IMG/VR virus record: IMGVR_UViG_3300033067_001996
Location: 1 to 29,792 of that record
DNA from: a virus
Taxonomy: Duplodnaviria > Caudoviricetes
DNA length: 29,792 nucleotides
Strand: one strand, 5' to 3'
Position 1 is the stretch's first letter. Each line of letters opens with the position of its first letter. Under the pieces are notes generated by a model. The model was not told the DNA's origin. It did not search any database and was given only the letters and a program-made list of their open reading frames with translations. Of this stretch, positions 1,280 through 25,080 are shown piece after piece. Made by a program: the position numbers and the translations under genes.

Positions 1280-3007
1280 TTAGGCTGCATTGGGGAGATG
1301 TTCGGCTAGTTGCTCTGTGGATACTCTATCACTCCACCAGCCTTCAAGAGCTCCAGGATCTCTTTGGGGGCGTCCTCCAGACGAAGTGGTCTGATCCGTA
1401 CACCTGGGAAGAGTTCTTCCCCTGCTGAGGTTCCTGAGCTCTTCTGCTTGGTGCTTTTCGGCTTCTTCCCTTTGCGGCGCTGGGCTCTGTTCATTCTCTT
1501 GTTCCTTTGTTGGTGTGTGCAGGGCTGCTGCTTCCTGGGAGAGTGCTTGCACAATAGAAAGGACTTGGTTCAATGAAACATTCCAGAACCTTGTTCTCTC
1601 ACCATTAAGCCTTCTCTCCTTCTTTGAGAAGCCTGCATTCGTCAAGATTGCTCCTACTACCTTGCTTGGCAAGTCCTTCTTGTACTTTTTTCCAAAGAGA
1701 GTCTCGTAGAAGGATTGGACGGCAGCGACGATGCTTTCAATCTTTACCTCGTGAGAATCCGTCTTCTCAACCATGGAAAGGCTTTTTACGAGCTTCTGTG
1801 TCCAGCTCTTGGATAGGTCAACTCGCTGACACTTGTCTAGTGTCTCCGCTATACTACTATCTCTCTCTCTCTTCTTGCGGTTGGTGGTAGGGTTCAGCTT
1901 CTCCTTGTTCCAGAGAGTCTTGGCAACCTTTACAACCTCCGATGTATGGAAGGTTGATGGGTTCTCAATCCTGTCAACTGAGACCTGCTTCAGATGGTCC
2001 ACGAATCCCTGGAAGTCATTGGTTCCAATAAAGTCGTGGATCTTCCCACCAGCATACTGAACAAGGGAAGAGTTACGCTCCCCTTCCTTCCAAACCAGAC
2101 CAAGAACTCCCGTCATCTTCTTTTGGTTTAGGATGGGCTTAGAGGAAATAACTCGCTGACGCGAGTCTAGGGCTACGCAGAAGCCTTTGGCTTCAAGTGT
2201 CTCCGCTATACTACTATCTTCTTCTTCCTCTTGACTGAACTCGGCTTCAAGCCTTGACTTGTAGAGCTCTCTCCAGTTCTCAGGAAGTACGGCAATCTCG
2301 GTGGAGAAGAATGGGTTCTCTAGATCCACTGTATAGACCCCCTTCTCTGTTCTAGAACCTGGGGCAAGGACGTAGGTGTTTCCACGAACGTCAATATTTT
2401 TGAAGAATGGGACGTTAGTCAGAGGTTCGTGGGATAGAACGTACAGATGCCTACCTCCAGAAGGGGTAGCCGAGATGAAGGTCTTCAAGTCAAGGATCTC
2501 AATGACTTTCTGGATCTTTCCCTGAATCACACCCTTGTTGTCAAGATCAAAGAAGCCGAGGTACAGAGACTTCTCTTTGTCAATCCATCCAGGAAGGATT
2601 CCAAGGTTGGTGCTTGCTGGCTCTCCAGTGACCTGGGAGAGCTTCTCGTTCCACTTGGCAAGCGCAGCTCCAGTCTCCTTGAGACCTGTCAAGCAAAGGT
2701 TCTTGTAGAACGTTTCCCCGTTCTTCATTTTACCCTTGGTCTTGACAAACTCGGCAGTAAGCCTTTTCTTGCCGTCACAGATACAGAAGGACACAAACCT
2801 ATTAGCGTCCTCGCCCTTGGCCGCAAACTTCTTCTGGAAGAGGCGGTCAAAGCTCAACCTTCCCAGGATTGGTTCAAGGCAAGAATAGACGTTCGTCAAC
2901 GTATCAGCAGCTTCCTGGTTCTCGTTGCACAAAGCAAGGAGTTGTTCGTCAGAGAAGCTGAGAAGGTCTTTTAGTGTTTTCTGTGTGTTGTTCACTTGTT
3001 TCTCCAA
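1280..3007 (-). CDS. Bifunctional primase/polymerase (Prim-Pol, AEP superfamily) with PriCT-like domain; no helicase domain
   Basis: Motifs NLGI, FFDLD (DxD), TPSGGRHLY, IDVRG..YVLAPGS; PriCT-1-like EGERNSSL; no Walker A motif visible. Confidence 0.85.
   Translation of the reverse strand: MEKQVNNTQKTLKDLLSFSDEQLLALCNENQEAADTLTNVYSCLEPILGRLSFDRLFQKKFAAKGEDANRFVSFCICDGKKRLTAEFVKTKGKMKNGETFYKNLCLTGLKETGAALAKWNEKLSQVTGEPASTNLGILPGWIDKEKSLYLGFFDLDNKGVIQGKIQKVIEILDLKTFISATPSGGRHLYVLSHEPLTNVPFFKNIDVRGNTYVLAPGSRTEKGVYTVDLENPFFSTEIAVLPENWRELYKSRLEAEFSQEEEEDSSIAETLEAKGFCVALDSRQRVISSKPILNQKKMTGVLGLVWKEGERNSSLVQYAGGKIHDFIGTNDFQGFVDHLKQVSVDRIENPSTFHTSEVVKVAKTLWNKEKLNPTTNRKKRERDSSIAETLDKCQRVDLSKSWTQKLVKSLSMVEKTDSHEVKIESIVAAVQSFYETLFGKKYKKDLPSKVVGAILTNAGFSKKERRLNGERTRFWNVSLNQVLSIVQALSQEAAALHTPTKEQENEQSPAPQREEAEKHQAEELRNLSRGRTLPRCTDQTTSSGGRPQRDPGALEGWWSDRVSTEQLAEHLPNAA
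1306..1494 (-). CDS. Small basic protein nested out of frame in the primase 3' end
   Basis: AAGGA upstream of ATG at 1494; begins MNRAQRRK, a type of N-terminus often seen in small phage proteins. Confidence 0.45.
   Translation of the reverse strand: MNRAQRRKGKKPKSTKQKSSGTSAGEELFPGVRIRPLRLEDAPKEILELLKAGGVIEYPQSN
1840..1861 (-). repeat. Dispersed 22-bp repeat copy 1 (inside primase)
   Basis: Minus strand GATAGTAGTATAGCGGAGACAC after purine run AAGAAGAGAGAGAGA; encodes DSSIAET. Confidence 0.95.
2197..2218 (-). repeat. Dispersed 22-bp repeat copy 2 (inside primase)
   Basis: Core identical to copy 1, after AAGAGGAAGAAGAA; followed by hairpin GAAGCC-AAA-GGCTTC. Confidence 0.95.
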
Positions 3008-3097
3008 ACCCTTGTCTAAGGGGCTTACTGGTAATTATACCTGTCCCTTGCAGTGTAGCTACCCTGGGATGTTTTTTCAACTTCTTTTCAAAGGTGG

Positions 3098-3126
3098 TTG
3101 ACAATGAAACGAGTATGCGGTACTAT
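3098..3126 (+). promoter_or_regulatory. Sigma70-type promoter
   Basis: TTGACA (3098-3103), 17-bp spacer, TACTAT (3121-3126). Confidence 0.7.
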
Positions 3127-3131
3127 TTATC

Positions 3132-3309
3132 CATGTTGGAGGCGTTAGTTGTTGTTCTCCTCCAACAGTCTGTGTAGGAACCCCTGGTAGCACCCTCAAA
3201 TAGAGTTGGCTCCAGGGGTTTCGCACATTTAGGGGATAGTTAGATGAGTCAGAACTTCGTCTGATACCCCTTGGCCCACCCAGAACTCACCTGGGTGGGC
3301 TTTTCTTTT
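3132..3309 (+). ncRNA. Candidate structured small RNA (~175 nt)
   Basis: Lies between a consensus promoter and an intrinsic terminator; stems 3134-3142/3159-3167, 3179-3187/3212-3220 and about 3232-3270; no credible ORF. Confidence 0.55.
3274..3309 (+). terminator. Rho-independent terminator
   Basis: GCCCACCCAG/CTGGGTGGGC 10-bp stem followed by TTTTCTTTT. Confidence 0.8.
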
Positions 3310-3311
3310 GG

Positions 3312-6200
3312 CTACCTCAGCTTCTTGATTGGAGCAAGGGAGACGATTCTTCTGGTTGTACCATCTCCAAGGTATGCCCAGGTCTTCTGGTCGACCTGTA
3401 GGCCACTTGTGCCGTAGGCATCAAAGCGTAGGTCAAGTGTTCCAGAAGCGGCAGCAGCAGGCCAGTTAACCACACCAGTGTTGATGGTCTCAGACAGAAC
3501 GATCGTGTTGGAGCCAATGGAGGCAATGGTGTAGGACTGGTATATCCAGGTTGCCGTATCTCTTATGATGAACTGAACCTTATCTCCCGGGTTGAACCAG
3601 TTGATTCCAAGATCGTTGGCTGTTCTGCTATATCCAGCCAAGTTGGAACCAGCGTAGTCAGTAGGAGATTCGGTTGAACTTCTTCCTGTTGTGATGTAGG
3701 AACCTGTTACAGTCAAGGTCTTGGTTGCAACATTGACATTGGAAATCTTGACACAAGGAGAGAATCCAGTGTTCACTGCTCTTGGGAAGAGGATACCTGT
3801 GATGCTAACCTTTCCTGTTTGGATGCTCGTTACCTTCTTTTGGACCAAGAGTTTAGCCGAAGCAAGAGCGCGCCCACCCTCACTGTTCGGTACCAACCAA
3901 TCAGATACGGTAATAACCATACCTGGGTAGATTCGTGTCATCCATGACAAAGGTAGGTGAACCGTATAAGCGGTGTACGGTTCCTTGAAGAGCTCAAAGA
4001 ATTTGGACTTAATATCGGCTGCGATAGTACCAATAGCATCTTCTCTTTGAAAAATTGCATCCTCAATTCCAACCTTTGACATGTTAATGTCAATACGCTG
4101 TACATCGCCATACTTTGCTCTGGATTCTTGGTTGTTGATCAACATACCTTTACCGTCTTGGATGCCATCAGATGACACAACAACCGTGGTAATAACGTTG
4201 TCTCCAATGTCCTCCCAGGTTGGCTGCTCACTCTTGATGTAGTCATTGGATGTAAGTGTCCACGAACTACTTGTTGTCGTGGAAGGCTTTGTGATGCGAG
4301 CAAAACGCATCTTTCCTTCCGTGGTTGTGGTTGGGGCAATGCCGTAGTATTGTGTCATTCCCTGGATTACATCTCCAATTGAAGTCTTTGGTTCCAGAAG
4401 CAACTCTGTTGTAAGAGATGGGTTCTGCAACTTTAGGGACATGTAACTGTTGAACGAGAAATCAAAGTCGGTATCATACTTGAATTTCTCAATGATTCCG
4501 TACCTGATCAAATCAAGCCAATGCCTTGATTTCAACGACATCCTATGTTCAAGGTCCACCTGTTGCATGACGAAGTGAATTGACCGCCATGACTCTGAAC
4601 CTAGAGAGAAATTGTCTGACAATCTCTGGAAAGAGGTATCTGCTGGATTCTTTGCTTTGAAGACAGCAGAGCCACTTTCAAAGTAAAGTGGTGCTCTACC
4701 AGCCCCAGAAGTATTTGGCAGGTTTTGCGCTGCCCAGTCGTAAGAACTTGCCGAGCAGTAGTAGAACATCCTCCTAGCTTTGTGAGGAAGGCCGCTAATC
4801 ACAGTTGGGTCTGAGGGAAATGAAGCAGACACAATAGATCCGCTTGAGTACACAATATTTGGGTTTCTATATGACTCAGCCTCAATGTCTCCAACCCAGG
4901 TTGTTCTGGTCAAGCAAGTATTGATGCTTCCAGAGTTGACAATCTCAAACTGCTCCAGAGAATCAACCCTATCCACAATCAAGTGGTTGTTATCAGCAGC
5001 GACAGCTCCATTCTTAAACACCTGGAAGGCCGACCATTCTGGGATTGGAATGAACACCTTCTTCTTTCCAGCATCTTGGTCTGATGTAATAGGAAGTTCA
5101 GACCATTGGAATGGTCTAATAGCTCTGGCATCAATGCCAGCACCAACTCCACCGTAGTTACCAAACAACTGTGTTCTAAAGTTCACAGACGGACTACCAT
5201 CTGGAAGAATCAAAGAGAACTTATTCTCTGTGATATCAGCCTCAATTCCAAGTGGAATTGTCCAACCGTCAAAGAGCTGTCCAGCGGTCCTGTTGCGCTC
5301 CCAAACATAGTGAAGTCCATAGGAATACCTGGACGGATAGTCTCGTTCGTTATACTCAATGTTCCTATTGCTTGGAACCTCAAATTGAATGTCTGGTGAA
5401 GTTGGTGTTACAATGCGGAAGCCAAGTTTTCTAGCATCCCAGCCTGCCAACCTTGTCTTTGCTTCTGTGACCTCATAGGTCTTTCCCTTGAGATCTGTCC
5501 AGAAGTGCTCGCACTGAAGCTCAATTGGAGCACCGTTGCCAGAAGCACGGGGAGCCCTTCCTCCAACACCTCTCCAGAGAACAGACCAGTTTCCATCCTC
5601 GTCTCTTCTCCAAAGCAGGACCTTCTGACGATATGGACCTGGATACGAGAGATAGATGGTAGGATAGTAGTTGCTGCTGGCGTCGACCCTATGGGTCTGC
5701 CTTCTGGTTCCAAGGGCCGCTCTCGTGTTCACATTGACGTTTTGGCCTGAGATGCTATCCTTCTCAAAAGCTTCGCCATTGATCCAAACAAAGCCAAATG
5801 TGTCTGGAACGATGTTCTCTCCACGAACAGCAAACTGCCCTGTGTTGTCGTCAGCGGTGTATGTTGCAGCCAACTGGCAGGTTTCTTGATTCTTGCTGGT
5901 GAACAACTTGGAAGCAATATTGACTGTCTCGCCCTCATAGGTCATCAGGATGTCGTGCACCCTAAAGGTGATACCATCGGCGTTGAAGTTGCTGTTCAGT
6001 AGGTCAAGTTCCTCAGAGAAGTCACCAATGCTGTTTGGATCAAGAGCTCCATTGGCAACCTGGGTAATGGCACTAATCCCATACGGCCAATCTGCATGAT
6101 TGATCGGCAGACTTGACATTGAGTCAATATAGCCAATTCCTGGGCTGGTGAAAACGACTGGGCAGCCTGCAATTGTGAGCAAATATCCTGTTGAAGCCAT
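3312..6200 (-). CDS. Large tail-tip / baseplate hub-type structural protein
   Basis: Likely start MASTGY at 6200 (GAGG RBS), ~962 aa; beta-rich; hub-like segments (IGDVIQGM...GKMRF; IYPGMVITV). Confidence 0.6.
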   Translation of the reverse strand: MASTGYLLTIAGCPVVFTSPGIGYIDSMSSLPINHADWPYGISAITQVANGALDPNSIGDFSEELDLLNSNFNADGITFRVHDILMTYEGETVNIASKLFTSKNQETCQLAATYTADDNTGQFAVRGENIVPDTFGFVWINGEAFEKDSISGQNVNVNTRAALGTRRQTHRVDASSNYYPTIYLSYPGPYRQKVLLWRRDEDGNWSVLWRGVGGRAPRASGNGAPIELQCEHFWTDLKGKTYEVTEAKTRLAGWDARKLGFRIVTPTSPDIQFEVPSNRNIEYNERDYPSRYSYGLHYVWERNRTAGQLFDGWTIPLGIEADITENKFSLILPDGSPSVNFRTQLFGNYGGVGAGIDARAIRPFQWSELPITSDQDAGKKKVFIPIPEWSAFQVFKNGAVAADNNHLIVDRVDSLEQFEIVNSGSINTCLTRTTWVGDIEAESYRNPNIVYSSGSIVSASFPSDPTVISGLPHKARRMFYYCSASSYDWAAQNLPNTSGAGRAPLYFESGSAVFKAKNPADTSFQRLSDNFSLGSESWRSIHFVMQQVDLEHRMSLKSRHWLDLIRYGIIEKFKYDTDFDFSFNSYMSLKLQNPSLTTELLLEPKTSIGDVIQGMTQYYGIAPTTTTEGKMRFARITKPSTTTSSSWTLTSNDYIKSEQPTWEDIGDNVITTVVVSSDGIQDGKGMLINNQESRAKYGDVQRIDINMSKVGIEDAIFQREDAIGTIAADIKSKFFELFKEPYTAYTVHLPLSWMTRIYPGMVITVSDWLVPNSEGGRALASAKLLVQKKVTSIQTGKVSITGILFPRAVNTGFSPCVKISNVNVATKTLTVTGSYITTGRSSTESPTDYAGSNLAGYSRTANDLGINWFNPGDKVQFIIRDTATWIYQSYTIASIGSNTIVLSETINTGVVNWPAAAASGTLDLRFDAYGTSGLQVDQKTWAYLGDGTTRRIVSLAPIKKLR

Positions 6201-6336
6201 TGTTCCTCTTTGTGTTTGCCGACCTCGGCCAGCAATACAAGCATAAGTAGCTCTCCCCCTTGGCTTGGAGGTATTCCCAGGTAAGAACTGTAGAAGCCTC
6301 TGGAAGCCTCTATAGCGCCTCACACTTGAAGCAAGG

Positions 6337-6606
6337 ATGATTGGTCATTCCATTTCTTTTGAAGCCTTGCTGAGGCTTGTGGAGCTTCCTACGGGTGTCA
6401 TACTTAGAGCAATGAGAGACAAGAGAGAAGAACTAGAGTTGCTTGGAACCAAGGTAGCTGCTGACATTCGTCAGTATGCTAGATCCAAACTGTTCTCCTC
6501 TTTTGCTTTCATTGCCGAAAACAAGGAAGAGAGAGAAGAAAAAGATGGAAGAGCAGAAGACAGAAGGTCAGCCTGTGAAGACAAGGGTGATCATTCTCTT
6601 GAATAG
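6337..6606 (+). CDS. Hypothetical protein
   Basis: 89-aa ORF leading a small plus-strand cluster. Confidence 0.45.
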   Translation: MIGHSISFEALLRLVELPTGVILRAMRDKREELELLGTKVAADIRQYARSKLFSSFAFIAENKEEREEKDGRAEDRRSACEDKGDHSLE

Positions 6607-7027
6607 GTTCAACGAACCTGGGGTCGACCAGCCGTGCTTGAATCAGAAGACGTTGCTTGCTGATTCTGATGAGTTTTACGAGACCCAGAAGAGGGCAGTG
6701 GAGGGATCCTTCAATAGGTTTTCTGGTGGATTCCACAAAGTTGTGCACTTCCTTGAAAAGGAACAGGTGTTTCTTGACAGGATTGTGGTCGACTCCTTTG
6801 AGGTTTACTGCCCTATTGGAATGAACGAATTGATCTACATGGCGGAGAGTTACGTGCTCACAGAGAATGACATCTTGAGATTCTTCCCAGAGGTTCTGGA
6901 GACCAATCCAACTCCCGTATCACCAACCAATGAGGAATTGGCTCTCATCTGCGAGCTTGCCGATGACATCACTGACTCGGTCAACTGTCTCCCAGGTGAT
7001 AAGCCAACTGAGCTTGAACTCAACTAA
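6545..7027 (+). CDS. Hypothetical acidic protein
   Basis: Probable start MEEQK at 6545; 160 aa. Confidence 0.6.
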   Translation: MEEQKTEGQPVKTRVIILLNRFNEPGVDQPCLNQKTLLADSDEFYETQKRAVEGSFNRFSGGFHKVVHFLEKEQVFLDRIVVDSFEVYCPIGMNELIYMAESYVLTENDILRFFPEVLETNPTPVSPTNEELALICELADDITDSVNCLPGDKPTELELN

Positions 7028-7083
7028 GCTGATTATCTTGTAATTGTCTTGTGTAAACAATACTTATATCTGAGGGTAATCAG

Positions 7084-7317
7084 ATGGTACAAGACAAGAC
7101 GGCACGCAAACTGGGAATCATTCTTTCAGCTCTTAACGAACTGGAGCAGAGAATGGAGAAGATCAGCAATGCAATTGATAGTATTGCCGAGGGACAGAAC
7201 AACCTTGGGCAATCACTTGCAAGGGTTGCTGACCTTCAAAAGGAGTACGCAGAGAAAAGGAGTGAGGAACTGCTCAATTCCATTGAAGCTAGTTTCTCGG
7301 AAGAAGAGAAGAATTAG
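7084..7317 (+). CDS. Small coiled-coil protein
   Basis: 77 aa with heptad pattern; GAGG RBS. Confidence 0.6.
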   Translation: MVQDKTARKLGIILSALNELEQRMEKISNAIDSIAEGQNNLGQSLARVADLQKEYAEKRSEELLNSIEASFSEEEKN

Positions 7318-7631: not shown

Positions 7632-7690
7632 GGCGGTCCTTTGTGGTAATTATACCAAACCTGTTGGTAGACACATGTCCTGGTGGTCAC

Positions 7691-7724: not shown

Positions 7725-7764
7725 ATCCTGGGCGACAGAGAGGGATCAACCCAGGAATACTCTT

Positions 7765-8982
7765 TCAGCCGTGGGCAAGCACGAACGGTGCGTAGCTAAG
7801 ATCAGACGACCGACCTGCAACCAAACCGTTCAACTTGCTCTTGACGGTAACCTCGCAGATCAAACGACCATCTGCATCGCTCCACTTTGGTGCGCCGACA
7901 ATCTGGCAGGTTGGGATGGAAGCAACCATCCAGCGACGAACTCCATTGGAGTCAAGCTTTGGTACCATGACGTGAAGCTGCATGTCCGTTTGAGCATTCC
8001 AGTTGAAGTCGGCTTGTGTGTCAGCTCTGAACTTAAGGGTTGCCTCAGCAAACGTCCTCTCGCCTGTGCGCATGACGCCAGTTGCACCTTCAACTCCACC
8101 AAGCTCCTCAAGGAACATCATTCCTGGGGTAACCTTGAATGTAACCGACTCAAGAGGATAGTGAACCCTTGTCGTGGTTGCCGTGGATTGGAACGAGCAG
8201 CTAACCCCAACAGCAGCGAATGGAGCTCCCAGGGACTCTGTGGCATATGTCACAGCAATGGACTGCGAGCCAGTTGTCCAGGTCTTTGCCTCAAGTTCAA
8301 AGGAGGCAATAATTTCCTTATCCCTTTCAATCTTGAGATCAAAGCTGTTTACCTTGCAGCCCTTGTAGGTCCACTGCATGTCAGAGCTGTCAACCTTGGC
8401 GTGCTGGAAGGTCAAGGTATTTGTGTTCGTCTCGGTTGGGTAGAAGTTGTCCATGTTGGCAACAACCGAACCAGAGGCAGGAGCCGAGGACAGGGCTGGG
8501 GTGACCGTAAGAGCCGTTGCAGAGCTAGAAATCACAAGAGCTGGCTCAAGTCCTGCTGTGGTTGTGAAGAGCGCCCACTGGCCCCTGGAGAAGTACCCCA
8601 TGCTGTCGACTGGAATCACTGTGGTGCTTGGGGAACCTCCAGCAAGCGAACCTGTGCTTGTCTGGTGGCCACCGAACACGGCCTTCAATGCCTGTTGCTG
8701 GTAGTTCTCAGAAGGGTAATTGGAGCCCGAGTAAGCTACAAGAGGAACCCTGGGATACATGTCAAACTTGACAGTTCCTCCTTTGAGTCCACGAACCGTA
8801 TTCTTGCGGTCGTAGAGCCTTGCAGACTCCGTCTCGTTCTCAATCTCGGTCTGGGAGTGAGCCAATTCAACCGTTCCTGCAACTGGGAAGGCACGATAAA
8901 GCGAACTTGCTGTAGTTCCAAATGTGCTCTCAAGTCCCAGGAATGTGGATGCAATCTTTGATTTTACGTTTACCTGTGCCAT
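7765..8982 (-). CDS. Major tail tube protein with an inserted beta domain
   Basis: N-terminal LGLESTFGT; YKGCKVNSFDLKI..IIASFELEA, typical of siphovirus tube proteins; follows the terminator-like gene. Confidence 0.75.
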   Translation of the reverse strand: MAQVNVKSKIASTFLGLESTFGTTASSLYRAFPVAGTVELAHSQTEIENETESARLYDRKNTVRGLKGGTVKFDMYPRVPLVAYSGSNYPSENYQQQALKAVFGGHQTSTGSLAGGSPSTTVIPVDSMGYFSRGQWALFTTTAGLEPALVISSSATALTVTPALSSAPASGSVVANMDNFYPTETNTNTLTFQHAKVDSSDMQWTYKGCKVNSFDLKIERDKEIIASFELEAKTWTTGSQSIAVTYATESLGAPFAAVGVSCSFQSTATTTRVHYPLESVTFKVTPGMMFLEELGGVEGATGVMRTGERTFAEATLKFRADTQADFNWNAQTDMQLHVMVPKLDSNGVRRWMVASIPTCQIVGAPKWSDADGRLICEVTVKSKLNGLVAGRSSDLSYAPFVLAHG

Positions 8983-10469: not shown

Positions 10470-10561
10470 GAGCTTCCTCTTTCTTGGTAGATATGGACTT
10501 ATTCAGGAGAGCTTGGTCGACTCTTGGTAGCTCCATGTCTCAAAAGCTAGAAGAAGAAGAA

Positions 10562-10583
10562 GATAGTAGTATAGAGGAGACAC
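10562..10583 (+). repeat. Dispersed 22-bp repeat copy 3
   Basis: GATAGTAGTATAGAGGAGACAC after AGAAGAAGAAGAA; in a divergent intergenic region. Confidence 0.95.
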
Positions 10584-10653
10584 CCTATCCCCCCACGCCA
10601 ATAAGTATAGCGTTGTAACCTGTGTGTACACTAGTTACCATTACAGAGGACCA

Positions 10654-10983
10654 ATGAAGTACGAGAAGAAGAACAAATACAGAATGGGGGAGCTCAAGCA
10701 CGGACCGACAACAGTGGCGTCTGTCAGGCTTCCAGAGACAACAATTGCAGTTATTGAAGAGATGGCAAAGTCTGTTGGCGAGACCAAGGGACAGTTCATT
10801 GCCAATGCCATCATTCACAGGATGATCCAGGTAGACATGCTGTCTCCTGGAGAAGCAAGCAAGGCAGCTCTGGAGAACCCAGGAAATGCCAAGTTCATTG
10901 AACTCCTGAAGAAGTGGCTGGTATCAGACGAACGAGAAGATACGGAGCTTCCTGGTCTCTTTGAGATTCCAGACATCAAATGA
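10654..10983 (+). CDS. Ribbon-helix-helix-like transcription regulator
   Basis: ASVRLPETTIAVIEEMAKSVGETKGQFIANAI; GAGGA RBS. Confidence 0.65.
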   Translation: MKYEKKNKYRMGELKHGPTTVASVRLPETTIAVIEEMAKSVGETKGQFIANAIIHRMIQVDMLSPGEASKAALENPGNAKFIELLKKWLVSDEREDTELPGLFEIPDIK

Positions 10984-12317: not shown

Positions 12318-13391
12318 CTAAATAGTAGCGTCTTCACTACTTTGGGATGAGGAAAGAGGTAGCTTGTAACCTTCGTAGGAAGGTGTGATGCCCTTCAGCA
12401 TTCTCTTGAACTTGAAGAAGCTGAATCCATTCTCCTTGCAGAACTTGGATAGGTTGTCAATTGTCATCAAGTTGCCGTCAGGTCCAATGACTTCGTATGC
12501 GGTTGCCTTGAAGCAGTGAACCTTTAGGTGATCCATACCACCAGAGATAAAGCGTTCCTTGGCTTTGGTAGAGAGAACAGCCCTTTTCTCCTCAGACTGT
12601 TCCCTGGAGATCAGACCGTCTTTCCAGAGTCTCTTGGAATGCTCCGAGCACTTGCGCTTATACTCCTCAAGCTTGACAGGATCGGCTTCCCTCTTGGCCT
12701 TAACCTTCAGGTAGGCTTCCCTCTTGCGCTGACGGGATTCCTCTGTTGATAGAGTTTCCTTCAAATTCTGCGAAATAGCCTTTCTTGACTCTGGGTCTGC
12801 CCAACGTTCCTTGAGCTTCTCAGAGATCAAAGCTCCGTTTGCTTTCTTTGTTGCCGAGATACTAGCGCCAAGCTCGGCCCTGAAGGTCTCATCGTCAAGT
12901 GCAACCTTCTTGCCAGTGTGCATCCTTTCCAGAGCAGCAACCTTGTATTCTGGATCGTCCCAAAGCTTCTTCATTGACTCTGACTGCTTCTTCTTGGTTT
13001 CCTCTGGGTTGCTGGAATAGTAGGTGCGTTCCTTGTCGGTAACCTTTTGCCTGAAGTTGTAGCAGGCACGAGAGCCGTCAGGAAGAATGGACTGGTAAAT
13101 CTCACTAATACACTCCTCTTCTCGTTTGTTCCTGTTCTCCTTGGTCGACTCTTCCATGACCTCAATGACTTCAAAGACAAGGAAGTCATCGTGTCCGAGC
13201 TCTTCCTTGCATTTGTTGAAGTCGTTCTGGAGGAACTTATTCTGGTGCTTGTTGGATCTTAGTGCAGCAGAATGAGAGGACCATCTTTCCTTGAATCTTT
13301 TTGCTTGACCAATGTAGATGCGGTTGGAGTGAGTGTTGGTAATCTTGTAGATTCCAGACTTGAGCGAGTGCGATTGATAGTTGAACTTCAT
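12318..13391 (-). CDS. Free-standing GIY-YIG homing endonuclease
   Basis: SGIYKITN...IYIGQA...RWSSH, conserved REEE and YN; repeated helical EETKKKQSES/ESRKAIS (NUMOD3-like) segments. Confidence 0.9.
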   Translation of the reverse strand: MKFNYQSHSLKSGIYKITNTHSNRIYIGQAKRFKERWSSHSAALRSNKHQNKFLQNDFNKCKEELGHDDFLVFEVIEVMEESTKENRNKREEECISEIYQSILPDGSRACYNFRQKVTDKERTYYSSNPEETKKKQSESMKKLWDDPEYKVAALERMHTGKKVALDDETFRAELGASISATKKANGALISEKLKERWADPESRKAISQNLKETLSTEESRQRKREAYLKVKAKREADPVKLEEYKRKCSEHSKRLWKDGLISREQSEEKRAVLSTKAKERFISGGMDHLKVHCFKATAYEVIGPDGNLMTIDNLSKFCKENGFSFFKFKRMLKGITPSYEGYKLPLSSSQSSEDATI

Positions 13392-14879: not shown

Positions 14880-15498
14880 AGAAGTCTTCCTGGGAGAACA
14901 CGGGGGAGCCGTGCTTGTTGTTTGGTGTTGGAGCCTTCACTGTTGGCTTTGGTCCAGACTGAATAGGTGGGATACCAGAAGGTTGAGCCTGTGGAGGTTG
15001 AACGTAGTAGTCCTTCCCTTCAATCCAGGACGACATAAAGGTCTCAGCGTCAATTGGAACAACAACCTGCTTGCCATCCTCTTCCTTGAGCTCCTCCGAG
15101 AACACAGCGTCTCCTTGAACCTTGAACTTGGAAGATACAAGGCCAAAGATGTCATCAAGAGCTGTTTCCTTGATGTTCAACTTCTTTGCCACCTTGGCAA
15201 CCTCGGCTCGGATGATGGCCGTCTCCTTCTCCTTGGAAACCTGAGATTGAAAAGCAAGAAGCTCTTCCTGCTTCTTCAAGAGCTCGGCTTGCTCCTTGCG
15301 GAACTTCTCAAGCTCCATCTTCTTCTCGCGCAATTCCTTTTGCAGGGCTCGCATGTTTGCAACTTCCTCTGGTGTGCTACCAGAAGCAGGAGCTTGTCCC
15401 GTAGTGGTCGACTGTGTTGATGCCCCAGGCTGAACTTCTGTTTTCTTGACAACAGCCTGATTTACCTTTTTGAGATATTCAACGTACCTTTTCATCAT
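14863..15498 (-). CDS. Capsid scaffolding protein
   Basis: Low-complexity N-terminus, charged coiled coil, Pro/Gly-rich C-terminus; upstream of the capsid gene. Confidence 0.7.
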   Translation of the reverse strand: MMKRYVEYLKKVNQAVVKKTEVQPGASTQSTTTGQAPASGSTPEEVANMRALQKELREKKMELEKFRKEQAELLKKQEELLAFQSQVSKEKETAIIRAEVAKVAKKLNIKETALDDIFGLVSSKFKVQGDAVFSEELKEEDGKQVVVPIDAETFMSSWIEGKDYYVQPPQAQPSGIPPIQSGPKPTVKAPTPNNKHGSPVFSQEDFFGRKV

Positions 15499-16493: not shown

Positions 16494-16516
16494 GGTTCCT
16501 CCGAGAAGGAGAGAGA

Positions 16517-16538
16517 GATAGTAGTATAGAGGAGACAC
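16517..16538 (+). repeat. Dispersed 22-bp repeat copy 4
   Basis: GATAGTAGTATAGAGGAGACAC after GAGAAGGAGAGAGA. Confidence 0.95.
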
Positions 16539-18151: not shown

Positions 18152-19330
18152 TTAGGTGATGTTTTCACCAAGCCAAAAGCTGTGAATGAGGATTTCACCC
18201 GTTACATCGTCAGTTACCGCTGTTAGGTAGCAGTCAACAATTTGGTCTGTTCCATCCGTTGGAAGGTCGACTGTGCCAGTAATAGTGGCAAAGCTGGCTC
18301 CGACAGCCAGATTAAGCTGGACTTGATTGTATCCTACTCCTCCATGTTTCCTGTAATTCAGGAACAAGTATGGCTTCGTACCACCAGCAGACGTGGAGTA
18401 GATGACTGAGATGTTGTATGGGCAGGTTGTCGTGGTAAGTCCGTAGGTGTTCTTTGCTCTGAGATAGAACACTCTGTTGGATGAATCGGCATTATTCGTG
18501 CCAACACCGTAGGAAAGAGCCGTTTCTGTTCCAAGGCCATATGGTTTGATGAAAACCCAATTCTTCTCAACGTCGTAAAGGGATGAGAGTTGGATTTGGT
18601 TTCTGTTTCTTTGACGGGCAATATCAAGATTCCTCACAATTTCCTGAAATCCATACTTCTTCTTTGGGGATGAGGTGGTGTCAATGAAGGAATCTGCCAT
18701 ATCCATGGACGCCCTTCCCCAAGACTCCTCAACTCCAGGATCGGTTGTGAAGTTGATCAACTGCTGGCGAGGAACCTCAAAGGCTGTTACTGTCCTGAAT
18801 CCGTGAGCTGTTGCAGCAATTGACGACCCTGTCATGGCATACCAGGAACCAGTGAAGACAAGTACGGAGGTTGACACGCAATTGGATACGTCCACGAACT
18901 CCCTGATCACCTGACGACCAGCAGAAGCAGTTGGGTATAGAGCAATCTGCCTTTCAGTTCTGGCAACAGCCGAATTGACCATGGAACCAGACGTTGCATA
19001 GTAAGCGTTTGGCGGAAGGCCCAGGTCAATTGTCAGGGTCTTTGGGGAAGATGCAGCTCCGTATGGCGTCCAGAGTTCAAACTCAAAGCACACGAACTGC
19101 GTTGCTGGGCTCTTCTGGTACTGGATGTACATGGTACCAGTCAGAGGGGTAGCGGTGCTTGCCGAAAGCTGCTGGACTCCAGTTGATAGGAATGGCGATA
19201 GGTTGCTTCCAACAAGGAAGTTGGAGGTTTGAATCCATGGACCAACTGTCGTCCTTCCGTAAACTGGGCTTGCGACAACGTTGCTGTTCACATAGGATTC
19301 AACTGGAAAGGATGGGACTGGTGTTGGCAT
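18152..19330 (-). CDS. Putative minor virion protein
   Basis: 392 aa; Ser/Thr/Gly and aromatic-rich, beta-type composition. Confidence 0.5.
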   Translation of the reverse strand: MPTPVPSFPVESYVNSNVVASPVYGRTTVGPWIQTSNFLVGSNLSPFLSTGVQQLSASTATPLTGTMYIQYQKSPATQFVCFEFELWTPYGAASSPKTLTIDLGLPPNAYYATSGSMVNSAVARTERQIALYPTASAGRQVIREFVDVSNCVSTSVLVFTGSWYAMTGSSIAATAHGFRTVTAFEVPRQQLINFTTDPGVEESWGRASMDMADSFIDTTSSPKKKYGFQEIVRNLDIARQRNRNQIQLSSLYDVEKNWVFIKPYGLGTETALSYGVGTNNADSSNRVFYLRAKNTYGLTTTTCPYNISVIYSTSAGGTKPYLFLNYRKHGGVGYNQVQLNLAVGASFATITGTVDLPTDGTDQIVDCYLTAVTDDVTGEILIHSFWLGENIT

Positions 19331-19447
19331 GGTTTCTGGTAATTAGAAGCTTTCCAGACGTCCTGGGACAGACGACGCACATACTGGTTACTTGGACACC
19401 TCGTGTCCTGCGGAGCTCTTGGACACTTCTTCAAGAGGAAGGAAGAA

Positions 19448-19469
19448 GATAGTAGTATAGCGGAGACAC
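19448..19469 (+). repeat. Dispersed 22-bp repeat copy 5
   Basis: GATAGTAGTATAGCGGAGACAC after AAGAGGAAGGAAGAA. Confidence 0.95.
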
Positions 19470-19496
19470 CCAAACTAAGTGTCTGAAACTATTGAC

Positions 19497-20168
19497 TTAC
19501 CTAACTTCAAAGGCAGAGATGGAGAAACAGTCGCCACCTGTAGCGTCCCACTTCAACCCAATCCAGAGATACACCTGGAAGACAGCCACCTGACCTGACT
19601 GCCCAGGCATGATGGTATTTGCTAGAACAGGCTGCTGACAATCCAGGGTAAGTTCCTGAATGGAGAAGCCACCTGTTGAGGACGAGAAGGTTGTCTTTGC
19701 AATGTATCCAGCACTTGGGCGAGCTGGGGTCGACGTAAGGTAGAGATACCCGTTTAGGTTGCCAGAATCAATGTAGAGGTCTAGGAGGACTCGGACCTTC
19801 CTCAGCGACTTCCTGTCAATTGTAATGTCCTTGTCTGCTGGAATCAGGAATGGACCGAACCTGTAGGCTGTCCTCTGGGTCCAGGAGATTTGTTGCTCGT
19901 CAGGAGCAGTTGCAAGGTTGACAGGCTCCCCAACGTCGGTGATTCCAGTATAGCCCGTCAAGTCATCCTGTGGGGGGTCTAGGTTACCTCCAAGGCTGGT
20001 TACGAGTTGCCTGCATCCCTCCATTGCGAGGTGGGAGAGGTTATTCGTGATAATCATGGCTGTCCCAGCATCAAGGGTTTCTCCGTCTTGCCAGAAGCCG
20101 CTTGTTGCTGCTGGGTGCTTGATGTACTTTGGGCTTGCTTCGTTGATGCGGTCGCCGTTGTCTGACAT
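19497..20168 (-). CDS. Putative minor virion protein
   Basis: 223 aa; WQDGETLDA...NNL N-terminus like tail-appendage proteins; beta-rich C-terminus. Confidence 0.5.
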   Translation of the reverse strand: MSDNGDRINEASPKYIKHPAATSGFWQDGETLDAGTAMIITNNLSHLAMEGCRQLVTSLGGNLDPPQDDLTGYTGITDVGEPVNLATAPDEQQISWTQRTAYRFGPFLIPADKDITIDRKSLRKVRVLLDLYIDSGNLNGYLYLTSTPARPSAGYIAKTTFSSSTGGFSIQELTLDCQQPVLANTIMPGQSGQVAVFQVYLWIGLKWDATGGDCFSISAFEVR

Positions 20169-20212
20169 GCTCTACTCTTTCAAGGCTAATTATGCCACAA
20201 GAGAGGTGCAGT

Positions 20213-20572
20213 ATGGGCAGCAAGGTATTGTACGAGGTTACGGAGCAAGGAAAACCGACATATGGGCCACAGAAAAAGGTTGTGCGGGTAACCATGGAGA
20301 TTGGAGCGGCTCACTACGCTTTCCTCAAGGTCCTTGGTTCTCAGTGGATGGTTGAATTTCCTGATCTCATTGAACTGTTTGTGGAAAGGGTCTTCCCCAG
20401 GGAATTCGTCAAGTTCCAGACTATTGTTTACACTCTTCTACAGCGTGGAATGGGAATATCTGATATTGTCACCTACTTAATTGCAGGTGAACGAAATGAA
20501 GAAAGAATCATCTGGCTACACAAACAACGAAACCCAAGTCCTGGAAATGACAGAAGAGCAAAAGAGAGCTGA
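20213..20572 (+). CDS. Hypothetical protein, possibly RHH-like
   Basis: GAGG RBS before MGSK; VRVTMEIGAAHYAFLKVL pattern. Confidence 0.45.
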   Translation: MGSKVLYEVTEQGKPTYGPQKKVVRVTMEIGAAHYAFLKVLGSQWMVEFPDLIELFVERVFPREFVKFQTIVYTLLQRGMGISDIVTYLIAGERNEERIIWLHKQRNPSPGNDRRAKES

Positions 20573-21170
20573 TCAGGAATGGAGAGCCAAAGACAAGAAG
20601 AGGTTGGTTGCGAGTAAACAGAAGGCGAATCAGGTATTTGAGAAGGTTGTGATGCCATTCCTTGAATCGGTAAAAGTGCTATCCAACCCACTCTCATGCG
20701 AAGACGAAGGAGCTGAGGAAAGCATCAAGCTGCTTGACGAACACTGGGGGATTGACTGGATTGCTGAGAGAGAGGGAGGTAAGATTGGAATTGCAGCAAG
20801 AATCTCTGGTTTTGATGGATTCACGCTCAGGGAAAGAAGTAGGGGGTATAGGTCAGAGGTTGAGAAGTTCGCAGAGCACCTGGAGAACAAGCTTAACCCA
20901 TTTGATCCAAGCAAGGTTTACCTCTTTCAAGTTGAGACAATTGTCGACTCCAATGGCATCAAGCAGCCGTATATGCTGCATATGATCAAAATGGAGAAAT
21001 TGTTCCAGTTCATTAGGGAGTTCCCCAATGACGTTGTCCATCGTGTCAACAAGCAGGATGGAAACACATTCATCTATATCCCGAGCTCAAAGCTTGAACT
21101 CCGTGGATTCAAGGTAGTCAAGGCTCAACTACCAAAGGAGGGACTCCAGAAGGCTTCACAGAGCCCTTGA
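20481..21170 (+). CDS. Hypothetical protein, possible restriction-endonuclease-like fold
   Basis: LD..WGIDW...IGIAAR segment; true start uncertain and likely further downstream. Confidence 0.5.
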   Translation: MQVNEMKKESSGYTNNETQVLEMTEEQKRADQEWRAKDKKRLVASKQKANQVFEKVVMPFLESVKVLSNPLSCEDEGAEESIKLLDEHWGIDWIAEREGGKIGIAARISGFDGFTLRERSRGYRSEVEKFAEHLENKLNPFDPSKVYLFQVETIVDSNGIKQPYMLHMIKMEKLFQFIREFPNDVVHRVNKQDGNTFIYIPSSKLELRGFKVVKAQLPKEGLQKASQSP

Positions 21171-21225
21171 ACTTAATGGAAGGACGATTGCACGTTCTGT
21201 CCAATTGAGAGCTCTGCTGAGCCTC

Positions 21226-22518
21226 CTATGAGTTCCAGACGGGCTTGCCGAGTGGTCTAGCACGAGCTTCGGTTGTTGCGAAGAAAGTTGCTGGCAGGTG
21301 CATGACGAGATAGCGGATTGGATCAATTGCGTGATCATCTCCTGCTTCTGGTTTGTCTATCGCCTTACCGTGTTTGTCAGTTGCCCATGCCCATCTTTGG
21401 AGTTCCTTGATGGTATTTAGGCAATTTCTGTGAACTAGGAGTCTATTCTCTGTGAAGAGCTTCTTCATTCGGTTAATAGACTCGTCTGTCTGCTTGATGG
21501 ATGGAATGAATCTAGGACGGTGATTGAAGGCTCTATTGGACGCTGCAATGCGTTCGTTGTGGGCTGAGTCAACAATGATGGCCTCAACTCCATATGACTC
21601 CTTGATGCGTTTGAACTCCTGAAACCAGCCATTCTCGTCCCAGGTCATGCCGTTCTTGTAGGTCTCGTCAACTACTACAAGCTTGTTGTCTCTGGTTATG
21701 GCAAAGACAGAAAGGCAAGATGGGGCTGTATATCCAAAGTCAAAGGCGGCATAGAACTTGGATGTGTCGGTTGGGATAGACGAGACAACGTTCTTATCCT
21801 TGAATTCCTTGAAGACTGTTCCAGTCTTGGAGACATAGCGGGCATAGACGTTCTGCTCAATCCATTCAGGAGAAGCTTGGGGTTGATTGAGGATGTTCTG
21901 GATATAGTTGGTCTTGGCAAGGGCTGGATTGTCGTAGGTTGTAGCTCTGAAGACAATGGAGTTCTTGTTGTACCAGCAGTCGTCCGTTCCTTCAAAACCG
22001 TTTCCTGGACCTGTTCCAAAGGCATCTTCCATCCAGCCGAGAGCTGGTGTCGTTGTGATGAAGATTTGAGGTTTGATCTTTGGGTCAGTATTTCTAAGGC
22101 GGTTGACAAGCTCAGAATAAACCTCTGGGTCCTTCTCAACAGCAGCCTCATCAAAGGCAACCCAGGAGATTTCAACACCCTGCAAGCGCTTTGGATCGTA
22201 GGAGCTCTTCCAGTAAATCTTGCTCCCCGTCTCCTTGATGATCATTTCCTTGGTGTTGGCATTGAAAGTGTACCATTCCTGGGGAATGGTCTCTTGCCAG
22301 ACACGAAAGATGCCTTGGCGAAGCATCTCAATGGTTGGGGCGATAACCATACCATTCTGCCCAGGACATTCAACGAAGACCTTCTTGATGATCTCAAAGA
22401 CAGACGCCGTGGTCTTTCCAAAGCCAACACCACAAAGAAGAACCTTGACAAAGTGCTTATCCTTGTGGAATTCCACTTGCTTTGGAGATGGAACGTATGG
22501 GCCCTTGACAGCCATCAC
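21226..22518 (-). CDS. terL: Terminase large subunit
   Basis: Walker A GVGFGKTT, Walker B VAFDEAA, TTTP coupling motif, nuclease FDFG and DDHAIDPIRY. Confidence 0.95.
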   Translation of the reverse strand: MMAVKGPYVPSPKQVEFHKDKHFVKVLLCGVGFGKTTASVFEIIKKVFVECPGQNGMVIAPTIEMLRQGIFRVWQETIPQEWYTFNANTKEMIIKETGSKIYWKSSYDPKRLQGVEISWVAFDEAAVEKDPEVYSELVNRLRNTDPKIKPQIFITTTPALGWMEDAFGTGPGNGFEGTDDCWYNKNSIVFRATTYDNPALAKTNYIQNILNQPQASPEWIEQNVYARYVSKTGTVFKEFKDKNVVSSIPTDTSKFYAAFDFGYTAPSCLSVFAITRDNKLVVVDETYKNGMTWDENGWFQEFKRIKESYGVEAIIVDSAHNERIAASNRAFNHRPRFIPSIKQTDESINRMKKLFTENRLLVHRNCLNTIKELQRWAWATDKHGKAIDKPEAGDDHAIDPIRYLVMHLPATFFATTEARARPLGKPVWNS

Positions 22519-23132
22519 TCGTCCTCAACTGTTGACTTACAAATGTCAATGAATTCCTTACCGAAGATTTCAGACACCGACTTCCCGGCAACCTCAGCTC
22601 TGATAACCTTTCTGGTCTCAATGCCAAACAGGTCTTTCATGAGCTTGGCTCCAGAGAAGAAGGACTTTAGATCACCCTTTGACATAGCAGCGTGCATTCC
22701 AGACTCCAGAATTTGCTTGAAGTAACCCTCAAGTTGGATCTTATCCTGGGAACGGAAGTCAAAGGTCATCTCAGCCAAGACCTGCTCGTGAAGGACTTGG
22801 ACGATGTTCTTATGGCTGCATACTCGGTAGGCGTAGACGTTCAAGAGGTCCCTGGGAGTCAGGGCTAGCACCATATGCCTGATGTAGGCTCTCAGAGCCT
22901 CAACAGGGTCCTCTAGCTCTTGATATAGCTCAGGTAGCTTGTCTCTGTTGAATGGAGCCTTAAACTCTGAGAAACTGATAGATTCAACCATCTGTTCAAG
23001 CTGCTTGCCGTCATTGGAAGGCGGGGCTGATGGATCAAAGGATGGTCGACCACGAAGATGATTGCCGTCCACGTCCTTCTTCTTGCTTTTCGTACGATTC
23101 CCAGGAATCTTCTTTCTTCCACGTTGAGCCAT
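22515..23132 (-). CDS. Putative terminase small subunit
   Basis: Overlaps the terL start (ATGA); basic N-terminus and helical body. Confidence 0.65.
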   Translation of the reverse strand: MAQRGRKKIPGNRTKSKKKDVDGNHLRGRPSFDPSAPPSNDGKQLEQMVESISFSEFKAPFNRDKLPELYQELEDPVEALRAYIRHMVLALTPRDLLNVYAYRVCSHKNIVQVLHEQVLAEMTFDFRSQDKIQLEGYFKQILESGMHAAMSKGDLKSFFSGAKLMKDLFGIETRKVIRAEVAGKSVSEIFGKEFIDICKSTVEDE

Positions 23133-23247
23133 GACTTACCTCTTTGATATATGGGTAAGTATGCAAACTACTTGGCAAGGAAACGAATGCTGAGACAGAT
23201 AGCAGAAAAGGCGAAAACAAGGAGAATATCCACGTCTTCGGTCAAGA

Positions 23248-24873
23248 TCAGACTCCGTATGAAGAACTCAGATAGCTTTCAACCTGGGATACTTCAGAAG
23301 AAGTCAGCTCTCTGTTGTAGATAATCACCTCGTGGAAACTCACGGCGGAAGAGTAAGCTCCACCACCGCCCGAACCGATTCCAAGTTTTTGGGTGGAAGT
23401 TGTTGCAGCCGGAACTGCTGACTCATTGACGGAAACAACATCTACTCCATTAACTCGGACAGAGTAGTCTGGGTTGCCGCCTGTTGAACCAGAGAATGCC
23501 AACTTACCCCAAGAGGTTTGGGTCCAGGCAAAGTTTTGGGAAATGATGGAGATTCCAGCATTTCCAATAGTCCAGTTTGCGGTTGTGTTGTTGATTCTGA
23601 CGATAGAGCTACCCAACGACGCTCCAGTTCCAGTTTGGGTGCCGAAGATGTAGTTCTGTTGAGTTGAAGCCGTCTTGGAGATGATGAAGACTGTGTGTCC
23701 ACTTCCGTCATGCAAGAACGTCCAGTCTGCTGCAACGCCACCAAGCAGGTATCGTCCACCAGAGACAGCATCCGTACCTGTCCAGTATGGGAGGTTGTTT
23801 GCTCCGCCTGTTGCAGAGTAGGTCGGCTGAGAAGCAGAAGTTGCTTGCACAGCGTGCCTTCCATTACCTGATTTATCCAGAGCAGCCGAAACCGTAGTTC
23901 CGTTTAGAGATAGGTTGTCGTATTTGTACCAAGCGTAGAGGTTGGTGATGCTGCTTGGAGTAAAGGAAGAAAGTGACGGTGCATCCCAAATCTGTCTGCT
24001 ATTAGACGAACTCAGGATCAACTCAATCTCTGGTGCATCCCTCAAGGCATCGTAGTTTGGAATGGAGACCTTCTGGAAACCCTCAATTCCAAAGTATCCT
24101 GGACGCAGATAAGCGCTGTCGTACTCCAGGTTGGTTTCAGAGATGTTTGCCTGGAATGTTCCATGGACAACCTGTACGGGCTTTCCTGTTGACATGCGAA
24201 GGAATTGCAGGAAGGTGAATGGTGGAGAATAGCTGACGGGATCAATGGTAGGTTGCTGCCACTGACTCTTGGAAACAGGAAAGATTGGGGTTGATGGATA
24301 AACCGCCAAGGAATCCTTGAAAGTTTGGTTCTTTGGGAAGAACCGAAGTGTCTGCTTCCTTGTGTGCTTGAAGATATCGTCCTTGAACCCATAGACGATA
24401 CCGTTTGGAAGCTCCTCGTAAGCCTGCTGGGACAGTTGGGTCTGCCAGTCGTCAGTCTGAGTTGAGTTGATAGCAAACACAGCTCCAAAGGGCTGGTAGG
24501 TGGCCGTAACAGACGAGCCAGAGGTGAAGGAAGCCGAAGTTGTGATGAATCCCAGGATGTTCTTCAAAAGGGACGAGGATACAAAGGAGATCATTCCAGT
24601 CCCAACTCCTCTGTAAGCAATCTTGACCTTTCCATCGCTCTCAAGAGTGAAATTGAAGTAACTTCCAACCTTCTCCCTGGTCTTTTGAATAAAGCACCAA
24701 GGAGCTTGCTGTGTTCCATCTGCCGAACCAGTGTTGGCAAGATATGGGGTGTAGTAGCCAGCAGGAAAGGTTACAGCCGTTGCCGAACCTGTAAGGTCGT
24801 TTGTCATGTACAATGTCTGGCTGGACGAGATGTAGAAAGTCGCAGCATACATCGTGTTGATCTGGTGAGCCAT
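23248..24873 (-). CDS. Distal-tail-position protein fused to a LamG/concanavalin A-like domain
   Basis: Directly after the tape measure gene; C-terminal YAWYK..DKSGNGRHAVQ..QPTY...HEVIIYNRELT. Confidence 0.65.
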   Translation of the reverse strand: MAHQINTMYAATFYISSSQTLYMTNDLTGSATAVTFPAGYYTPYLANTGSADGTQQAPWCFIQKTREKVGSYFNFTLESDGKVKIAYRGVGTGMISFVSSSLLKNILGFITTSASFTSGSSVTATYQPFGAVFAINSTQTDDWQTQLSQQAYEELPNGIVYGFKDDIFKHTRKQTLRFFPKNQTFKDSLAVYPSTPIFPVSKSQWQQPTIDPVSYSPPFTFLQFLRMSTGKPVQVVHGTFQANISETNLEYDSAYLRPGYFGIEGFQKVSIPNYDALRDAPEIELILSSSNSRQIWDAPSLSSFTPSSITNLYAWYKYDNLSLNGTTVSAALDKSGNGRHAVQATSASQPTYSATGGANNLPYWTGTDAVSGGRYLLGGVAADWTFLHDGSGHTVFIISKTASTQQNYIFGTQTGTGASLGSSIVRINNTTANWTIGNAGISIISQNFAWTQTSWGKLAFSGSTGGNPDYSVRVNGVDVVSVNESAVPAATTSTQKLGIGSGGGGAYSSAVSFHEVIIYNRELTSSEVSQVESYLSSSYGV

Positions 24874-25005
24874 GGATGGGTCCTCTTATCTTCTAACCAC
24901 TAAGTATCAAGTTCTTCAAGCACCATGCTCCCCACTGGTTACTTGGACACTTCGTACCAGGGACCACCTCTATGAAAGGAGAGGTGTAGAGAGAGAGGAA
25001 GGAGA

Positions 25006-25027
25006 GATAGTAGTATAGAGGAGACAC
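25006..25027 (+). repeat. Dispersed 22-bp repeat copy 6
   Basis: GATAGTAGTATAGAGGAGACAC after AGAGAGAGAGGAAGGAGA; followed by hairpin GGAGCC-GAA-GGCTCC. Confidence 0.95.
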
Positions 25028-25080
25028 TTGGAGCCGAAGGCTCCTGCGTCGACCTAAACAAGTGTCAGCAAGCCAATACT

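Follow-up and report, generated by a model that had tools for sequence, protein, structure and literature searches.

Class C theta replicons of the ColE2-P9 and RepA-PFP kind join an archaeo-eukaryotic primase, a PriCT domain and a DNA-binding domain in one helicase-free protein, and use a short origin able to sit in the rep gene (PMC5304414, PMC5862659). ColE2 Rep has no nucleoside triphosphatase and unwinds DNA by means of PriCT-1 and a helix-turn-helix alone (PMC5862659), and the related RepA-PFP replicons have antisense-controlled origins located within rep itself (PMC5304414). Nearly all double-stranded DNA viruses with a primase encode a helicase too; about 2% do not, and their replication has been called an open question (PMC5862659). 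Here, we describe a 22-bp element and the primase gene to which it belongs in a tailed phage (Caudoviricetes; IMG/VR record IMGVR_UViG_3300033067_001996), of which the whole stretch of 29,792 nucleotides was analysed (hereafter, the window). The element occurs six times, twice in frame within the gene for a Prim-Pol protein with predicted PriCT and winged-helix domains, and four times between genes, on the other strand. It is conserved in relatives, lies in inter-domain linkers of the primase and is duplicated in allele-specific form across the family, as DNA in two genomes and as peptide elsewhere. Its tie to the phage's own primase is well supported by these sequence comparisons. On balance, we favour the reading that a ColE2-like initiator primase binds the six copies as its cognate sites and primes there, with the in-gene pair as origin and with the opposite-strand copies as the places where the displaced strand is primed. 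No account of the phage family or of the element was found in the literature searched, which reached few subscription journals.

The likeness to ColE2-P9 and RepA-PFP replicons covers the place of the in-gene copies, which fits an origin within a rep gene, and possibly control: those plasmids have an upstream antisense control RNA (PMC5304414), and opposite the phage primase there are a promoter match, a structured segment (z -7.25) and a terminator-like site. The phage differs from ColE2-P9 in its catalytic domain, which is Prim-Pol (PF09250) and not the ColE2 Replicase, in belonging to a tailed phage, in its predicted winged-helix C-terminal domain, and in having six sites on both strands instead of one origin, with the in-gene sites in inter-domain linkers. 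pRN1 ORF904 offers the nearest solved catalytic domain and a C-terminal winged helix proposed as the origin binder (PMC4234260). It also carries a superfamily 3 helicase, and its one origin, a 100-nt stem-loop, lies downstream of the gene, whereas the phage protein lacks a Walker A motif and the phage word (the sequence of the element) is dispersed, with no GTG kept throughout; pRN1 origins mutated in GTG still replicate (PMC4234260). The ssiA and ssiB sites of RSF1010 RepB' are, like the phage element, long primase-specific sites on complementary strands, with primers starting 3' of a hairpin, on a pyrimidine (PMC8567376). By contrast, ssiA and ssiB occur once each in oriV, need the RepA helicase and RepC, and depend on their hairpin, while the phage sites are scattered along the genome and do not consistently form a hairpin. 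The lambda origin lies inside gene O, so that cognate sites stand within the initiator gene as do the phage in-gene copies; unlike the phage protein, O is not a primase, and its iterons form a cluster, without scattered copies on the opposite strand. By domain content, the phage primase is best classed as working like a ColE2-type initiator primase without being a member of that group, and as neither pRN1- nor RSF1010-type.

Repeat copies and their conservation

The six copies (Table 1) are the only ones in the window at three or fewer mismatches, and 100 shuffles gave 0 matches. Ahead of each core runs a purine-only tract (15, 14, 13, 14, 15 and 18 nt for copies 1 to 6); at least 13 purines stand directly ahead of just 71 of the 59,585 window positions on both strands, and an A is immediately 5' of the core in 6/6 copies. 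Copies 1 and 2 lie within the Prim-Pol gene and copies 3 to 6 are intergenic, the steps between the latter being 5955, 2931 and 5558 nt. A preliminary description, made from the letters of the window, had reported these six copies with their coordinates and strands, purine-only runs of about 13-18 nt ahead of each, two minus-strand copies in the primase gene and four plus-strand intergenic ones about 3-6 kb apart, and our measurements agree with it on each of these points. Beyond the core, copies 6 and 2 are 84% identical over 80 nt, a stretch that contains a 6-bp hairpin in which one double change is seen. A further 22-mer is common to copies 5 and 6 (19383-19404 and 24934-24955).

Close relatives assemble as single contigs of 31,771 and 31,746 nt, the second of which has copies 3 and 5 at nearly the spacing found in the window. 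Because of this single 31,746-nt contig, the window appears to hold about 94% of a genome of about 31.75 kb, and the element map to be nearly genome-wide. Around such a circle, the spacing would be 8.5, 6.0, 2.9, 5.6 and 8.8 kb. The evenness of this spacing (P ~0.03, post hoc, with copies 1 and 2 merged) is not relied on, and neither are AAGTGTC satellites near the elements (5/10, post hoc), which are not kept in the related contig L002.

Table 1. Repeat copies, primase gene and associated features of the window
Feature	Position	Strand	Remarks
Primase gene, 571 residues	1280..2995	-	Prim-Pol (residues ~1-256), PriCT-like helical (~300-370), predicted winged helix (~395-493), disordered tail
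Copy 1, purine tract and core	1840..1876	-	Core position 1840; linker 2, PriCT/winged-helix boundary; core residues 379-386
Copy 2, purine tract and core	2197..2232	-	Core position 2197; linker 1, Prim-Pol/PriCT boundary; core residues 260-267
Copy 2 flank common to copy 6	2152..2196	-	6-bp hairpin, one double change
Copy 3	10549..10583	+	Core position 10562; intergenic, flanked by the 9591-10469 gene (-) and the CopG-like gene (+)
Copy 4	16503..16538	+	Core position 16517; intergenic, between portal and next gene
Copy 5	19433..19469	+	Core position 19448; intergenic
Copy 6 and flank common to copy 2	24988..25072	+	Core position 25006; intergenic, past the probable tape-measure gene
Satellite 22-mer by copy 5	19383..19404		Recurs by copy 6; poorly kept in L002
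Promoter match (sigma70-like), four hairpins, terminator-like site	3098..3310	+	Upstream of and opposite to the primase; structure z -7.25
Second motif	311, 9045, 10495, 11821, 14568, 15563, 16015, 23153 (approximate)	-	Sequence motif

L002, which is 92.6% identical to the window over 19 kb and was compared over a stretch that does not include its primase, keeps copies 3, 4 and 5. Between the two, 2/67 core columns have changed versus 62/379 flank columns (Fisher p 0.002). Changes in the tracts (17/51 columns) are all purine-to-purine or purine indels, and the tracts remain purine-only. Copy 4 of L002 bears a 1-nt core insertion by which TATACT is lost; the core of copy 5 is identical in L002, and its variable base is A in read set X15. 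Copy 3 is retained in 4/4 read sets aligned there, and an element stands at or near its place in L001, L002 and L004. In L001 (37% GC), the copy-3 position holds one TATACTAT with a pyrimidine tract, beside a 47-nt exact inverted copy of the tail of its own primase gene. L004 (32% GC) has three CTATACTACT copies past the equivalent gene, two of them with tracts, and the other strand of these non-coding copies gives stretches of 10 residues that match the P0035 primase tail exactly, with stops and frameshifts interrupting them. DNA is in this way common to a primase gene and intergenic copies in three lineages, namely the window (copies 2 and 6, 80 nt), L001 (47 nt) and L004. In both genomes that show the two classes of copy (2/2, the window and L001), the in-gene ones are on one strand and the intergenic ones on the other. 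Across these lineages, the family-level core is best described as TATACT(ACT) plus the tract, the GTGTCTCC side being lineage-specific.

Outside these relatives, the DNA pattern of the element gave 0 matches in the viral contigs and 0 in the genome contigs searched. A relaxed pattern gave seven single matches in unrelated contigs; these have no likeness to the window or its proteins, and we set them aside as chance.

Primase domains and linker words

The protein-family scan covered 33 of the 138 listed open reading frames (ORFs) of the window, chosen as likely genes, and among these the Prim-Pol–PriCT–winged-helix primase is the only recognizable replication protein. No helicase family was called in the window proteins beyond a sub-threshold DEAD match in the terminase, nor any Walker A protein other than the terminase, and a strict Walker A pattern occurs once in the window, in the tape-measure frame, and not in the primase. 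The primase matches PF09250 above the cut-off (E 7e-7), its catalytic residues D152, H183 and D202 are invariant in 24 sequences, with D150 nearly so, and across 24 family members Pfam calls Prim-Pol in 18 and Replicase in 0. An AlphaFold model (alignment of 24 sequences; predicted local distance difference test score 69) has ordered parts at residues ~1-256, 300-370 and 395-493, joined by disordered, low-confidence linkers at 257-299 and 371-394. The two in-gene copies encode residues within precisely these linkers, which flank the PriCT domain, and the copies hold the only two ATA codons of the gene (2/22 Ile codons).

The catalytic domain aligns with pRN1 ORF904 (Z 10.8, root-mean-square deviation (rmsd) 3.3, 158 aligned; E 8e-7). 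The helical domain aligns best with the structure of origin-bound ColE2-P9 Rep (Z 6.9-7.4, rmsd 3.9-4.9, 73-76 aligned), which is a lead only, and the third domain aligns weakly to winged-helix folds (RFX, Z 5.0-5.2; PadR, D5 C-terminal and P4 origin-binding rows). The Pfam cut-off for PriCT_1 is passed by homologue P0004 alone; the PriCT and winged-helix labels of the window primase are predictions from that match, the model and the weak fold matches. In L001, the primase (308-2376) is read in two overlapping frames, split just ahead of the winged-helix recognition part by either a sequencing error or a programmed shift.

Primase searches gave 5 close homologues, 5 members of the L001 clade and 290 representatives (E <=0.001 for the last). 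The primases P0003, P0005, P0038/P0183 and P0042 are encoded on contigs of ~30-31 kb. Linkers were compared in 23 full or near-full-length primases, the window's included, with partial proteins, P0032 and all matches ranked below P0056 left out. Linkers 1 and 2 have 6-7 of 7 residues in common in 11/23 (19-60% identical to the window primase, which is counted among them), a tally that leaves two looser cases out; this level is reached by 0-1/200 shuffles, and the mean best match to the linkers of other proteins is 3.2-3.9. The words differ by allele and number about nine (DSSIAET, EGTSSIS, SIALTxS with SIELTPS, LPxLSID, RGRREKD(CIEGP), RESNSSI, ASxSSLS, HRVELVS and QSTCYSP). They are known as peptides, and the in-gene repeat was seen as DNA in the window and L001. 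Most contain Ser or Cys followed by Ile, or Tyr-Ser, and are compatible with a TATA core, as are 6% of random 9-mers. P0041 carries four word copies, and P0004 has three weaker ones, between which PriCT is duplicated. The L001 primase region contains a 49-nt direct repeat with a AGTAATATAG core, in linker 1 and past the winged helix, the first copy being an insertion absent from 3/4 aligned relatives. Of 180 matches to Prim-Pol loci of other phages, the best 80 were compared: some in-gene repeated 14-mer occurs in 7/80 and one that also lies outside the gene in 0/80; this test is strict and missed L001 too, owing to its frameshift.

The paired copies shift together within a gene yet differ among alleles, as is expected of a site read by the product of that allele. 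The link between element and primase drawn in the preliminary description has gained support, from the allele-specific words in the same linkers across a divergent family and from the DNA blocks common to primase genes and intergenic copies. Because many distant relatives duplicate words of their own at these linker positions, the copies are likely sites of binding and priming by this primase.

The same data also bear on an unlikely alternative, namely that the copies are duplication relics or recombination boundaries, with short blocks that spread by copying between the primase gene and sites able to tolerate them (linkers and intergenic gaps), were homogenized by conversion and act at most as crossover points for module shuffling. 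Such a history would suit the 47-80 nt blocks common to gene and intergenic sites, the fall in identity between P0001 and P0002/3 past copy 2 (Prim-Pol, 87-92%; the domains beyond, 54-61% and 28-31%), the PriCT duplication between repeats in P0004, the varying gene order among the window, L001 and L007, and a variable base that differs among strains at one locus. It sits poorly with a core conserved about five times better than its flanks, with a TATACT-plus-tract core still present at 32% GC, and with the use of the same two linkers down to 19% identity; allele-specific words would, moreover, hinder exchange, not help it.

Candidate mechanism and competing functions

If the copies are sites of the initiator primase, domain order and the ColE2 precedent suggest that the PriCT–winged-helix module would bind the word and open the AT-rich TATAG core without a helicase, after which the Prim-Pol domain would make a primer and a host polymerase would extend it. 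From its orientation, the in-gene pair would start one strand as a unidirectional origin. Once the other strand is displaced, the four copies that it bears, 3-9 kb apart on the circle, would be primed, in strand-displacement or rolling-circle synthesis, much as RepB' uses ssiA and ssiB on opposite strands (PMC8567376). With the pyrimidine-tract strand as template, leading synthesis would run along late transcription; this is the weakest step, and the direction is uncertain. Priming of DNA by the primase at the element is, at present, a candidate activity. More tentatively, the phage may represent an undescribed family of ~31-kb tailed phages that possess one helicase-free initiator primase, its own word twice in the linkers and opposite-strand copies as second-strand priming sites, in which the word would diversify jointly with the protein, the two forming a swappable specificity cassette, and new intergenic copies would come from the primase gene. 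The family would then offer a small test system for helicase-free replication with the enzyme and candidate sites named, and the approximately nine natural word–protein pairs readable from the linkers might hold a recognition code for PriCT–winged-helix primases. If double-stranded DNA is indeed opened and primed by such an enzyme at an allele-specific site of ~35 nt, the primase could serve orthogonal replicons or primer-free amplification.

Several observations weigh against the initiator-primase reading. The linker test failed in 12/23 primases, including the four-member P0033-36 clade, P0004 and P0042 (two copies inside linker 1). Among 11 proteins, word similarity follows the winged-helix recognition region (rho 0.34, p 0.08) no better than the catalytic domain (rho 0.50, p 0.014), so that reading of the word by the winged helix is not supported by this comparison; one pair, P0004 and P0040, does fit it. 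The ColE2-P9 Rep fold match is below Z 8, and about 2 kb of the genome, outside the window, could encode a helicase. Hairpins at the element are inconsistent, with copies 2 and 6 (and, marginally, 1) folding better than 90% of the background. Tract changes of the kind seen in L002 can come from slippage without selection, and the intergenic word of L001 is just partly like its in-gene word.

The element core was seen in none of L003, L005, L006 and L007 (1.4-15.5 kb; L007, of 15.5 kb, has a major capsid protein 48% identical). In read sets X4 and X6, positions 1335-2668 have almost no cover and contigs diverge from the window at 1248 and 1343, while the copy 3 core has at most one difference. 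Possibly, another primase allele accompanies an unchanged intergenic word there, which would speak against strict coupling; a gap in contigs is no proof, and we do not count it.

Strand signals tell further against the reading. The preliminary description had seen a polarity flip between 2218 and 10562 and suggested sites oriented around an origin. The pattern is better stated as two classes, the in-gene copies sharing one strand and the intergenic ones the opposite strand, than as a switch around a two-way origin. Fourfold-site GC skew keeps the same sign across this interval, without a switch at the flip (0.36 in the primase, 0.35 in the next gene, and positive in most minus-strand genes on both sides), although codon bias dominates this measure and its power is low. 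A GTG start of the complementary strand had also been noted there; it is present in all window copies and is missing at that place in 3/6 copies of L001 and L004, and thus is not constant across relatives. The pyrimidine tract as a fixed template is doubtful. In some alleles, the tract appears to change strand (from peptides, and from the DNA of L001), in that relatives sharing one core peptide seem to differ in whether the coding strand of the tract is pyrimidine or purine. P0004 and P0040 exemplify this, their peptides implying a pyrimidine-type versus a purine-type tract beside one core peptide; because the core peptide is kept with opposite tract types, the tract may be structural.

The family-conserved part of the element is a -10-like hexamer facing the late genes in every intergenic copy seen (four in the window, one in L001 and three in L004), which raises the rather improbable possibility of promoters on the TATACT strand, with copies 3-6 driving late genes and copies 1-2 yielding antisense or R-loop primer transcripts in the primase gene. 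The genes below copies 4, 5 and 6 lack the second upstream motif (Table 1), and copy 1 scores 10/12 as a sigma70 site. The copies nevertheless have no common -35, the first purine past TACTAT comes 15-20 nt on, and the insertion in L002 copy 4 destroys TATACT. A separate CATATA/ATATTTA motif stands before 8/22 minus-strand starts, including that of the gene below copy 3, and also in L001, L004 and L007; promoters would, furthermore, leave the allele-specific words in the primase linkers unexplained. With sigma70 criteria (-10 with -35, or extended TG, plus a purine start), 1/6 copies is called, other promoter types being outside the scan. The promoter alternative of the preliminary description is weakened by the separate motif and the want of a common -35, and we retain it at reduced standing. 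A resemblance to promoters of T7-type single-subunit polymerases was set aside, since the window showed no polymerase of that kind and such promoters would be oriented against the late genes.

A role as operators, or as roadblocks to transcription, for one of the ribbon-helix-helix-like proteins of the phage is very improbable. The sites are asymmetric, 4/6 are intergenic in one orientation to late transcription, and copy 3 lies just ahead of the CopG-like gene (PHROG E 2e-4), all reminiscent of the stoperators of Cluster A mycobacteriophages, which are asymmetric, oriented, intergenic repeats across the phage genome (PMC9283540). Stoperators, however, are repressor-bound 13-mers in more than 20 copies in L5, uniform with transcription (PMC9283540), against six sites here, four one way and two the other, the two being oppositely oriented to transcription and within a gene. 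The words, too, follow primase alleles, and an inverted repeat seen in the sequence at 10610-10640, which may be an operator, is the nearer candidate for that role.

Genome content and other features

The window encodes a terminase, a portal, a scaffold, a major capsid protein, a tail tube, a probable tape measure, a GIY-YIG nuclease and a CopG-like regulator in addition to the one Prim-Pol protein. Relatives, mostly 90-95% identical, are found in freshwater, activated-sludge and aquatic read sets, with a near-identical one in a riverine set. No close primase relative was found in the viral contig collection searched, and annotated phages and plasmids match just the catalytic part, the PriCT part or distant terminases. 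Neither a capsid search of genome contigs nor an element search there revealed a host.

The structured region upstream of the primase may be a control RNA of ~170 nt, at 3133-3310, or a structured part of the origin. It has no Rfam match, and positions 1-139 (-) of L001 have a like but weaker layout (z -3.2), with no terminator called by the scan.

The second motif, of CATATA type in the window and ATATTTA in relatives, lies 21-141 nt ahead of the minus-strand starts concerned and is a candidate late promoter of the phage family. A GTATAATTACCA motif, found ahead of both the primase (2995, -) and the 7314-7631 gene (7631, -), is a possible early promoter.

The order of late-gene modules differs in the window, L001, L004 and L007, and primase alleles are mosaic by domain. 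A GIY-YIG endonuclease gene lies 3' of the capsid gene in the window (12318-13391), in L007 (6323-7435) and in L002, and is absent there in L001 and L004. L007, a contig that does not include the primase, has a 58-nt two-copy intergenic repeat (8855-8912 and 15247-15304, 83%) unrelated in sequence to the element. Three small ribbon-helix-helix-like proteins are encoded at 70-288 (-), 10657-10983 (+) and 20192-20572 (+), one with a PHROG CopG-like match and the others judged by eye. Finally, a 41-nt inverted repeat (29085-29125 and 29289-29329; 95%, 163 nt apart) flanks a terminator-like hairpin at 29229-29266.

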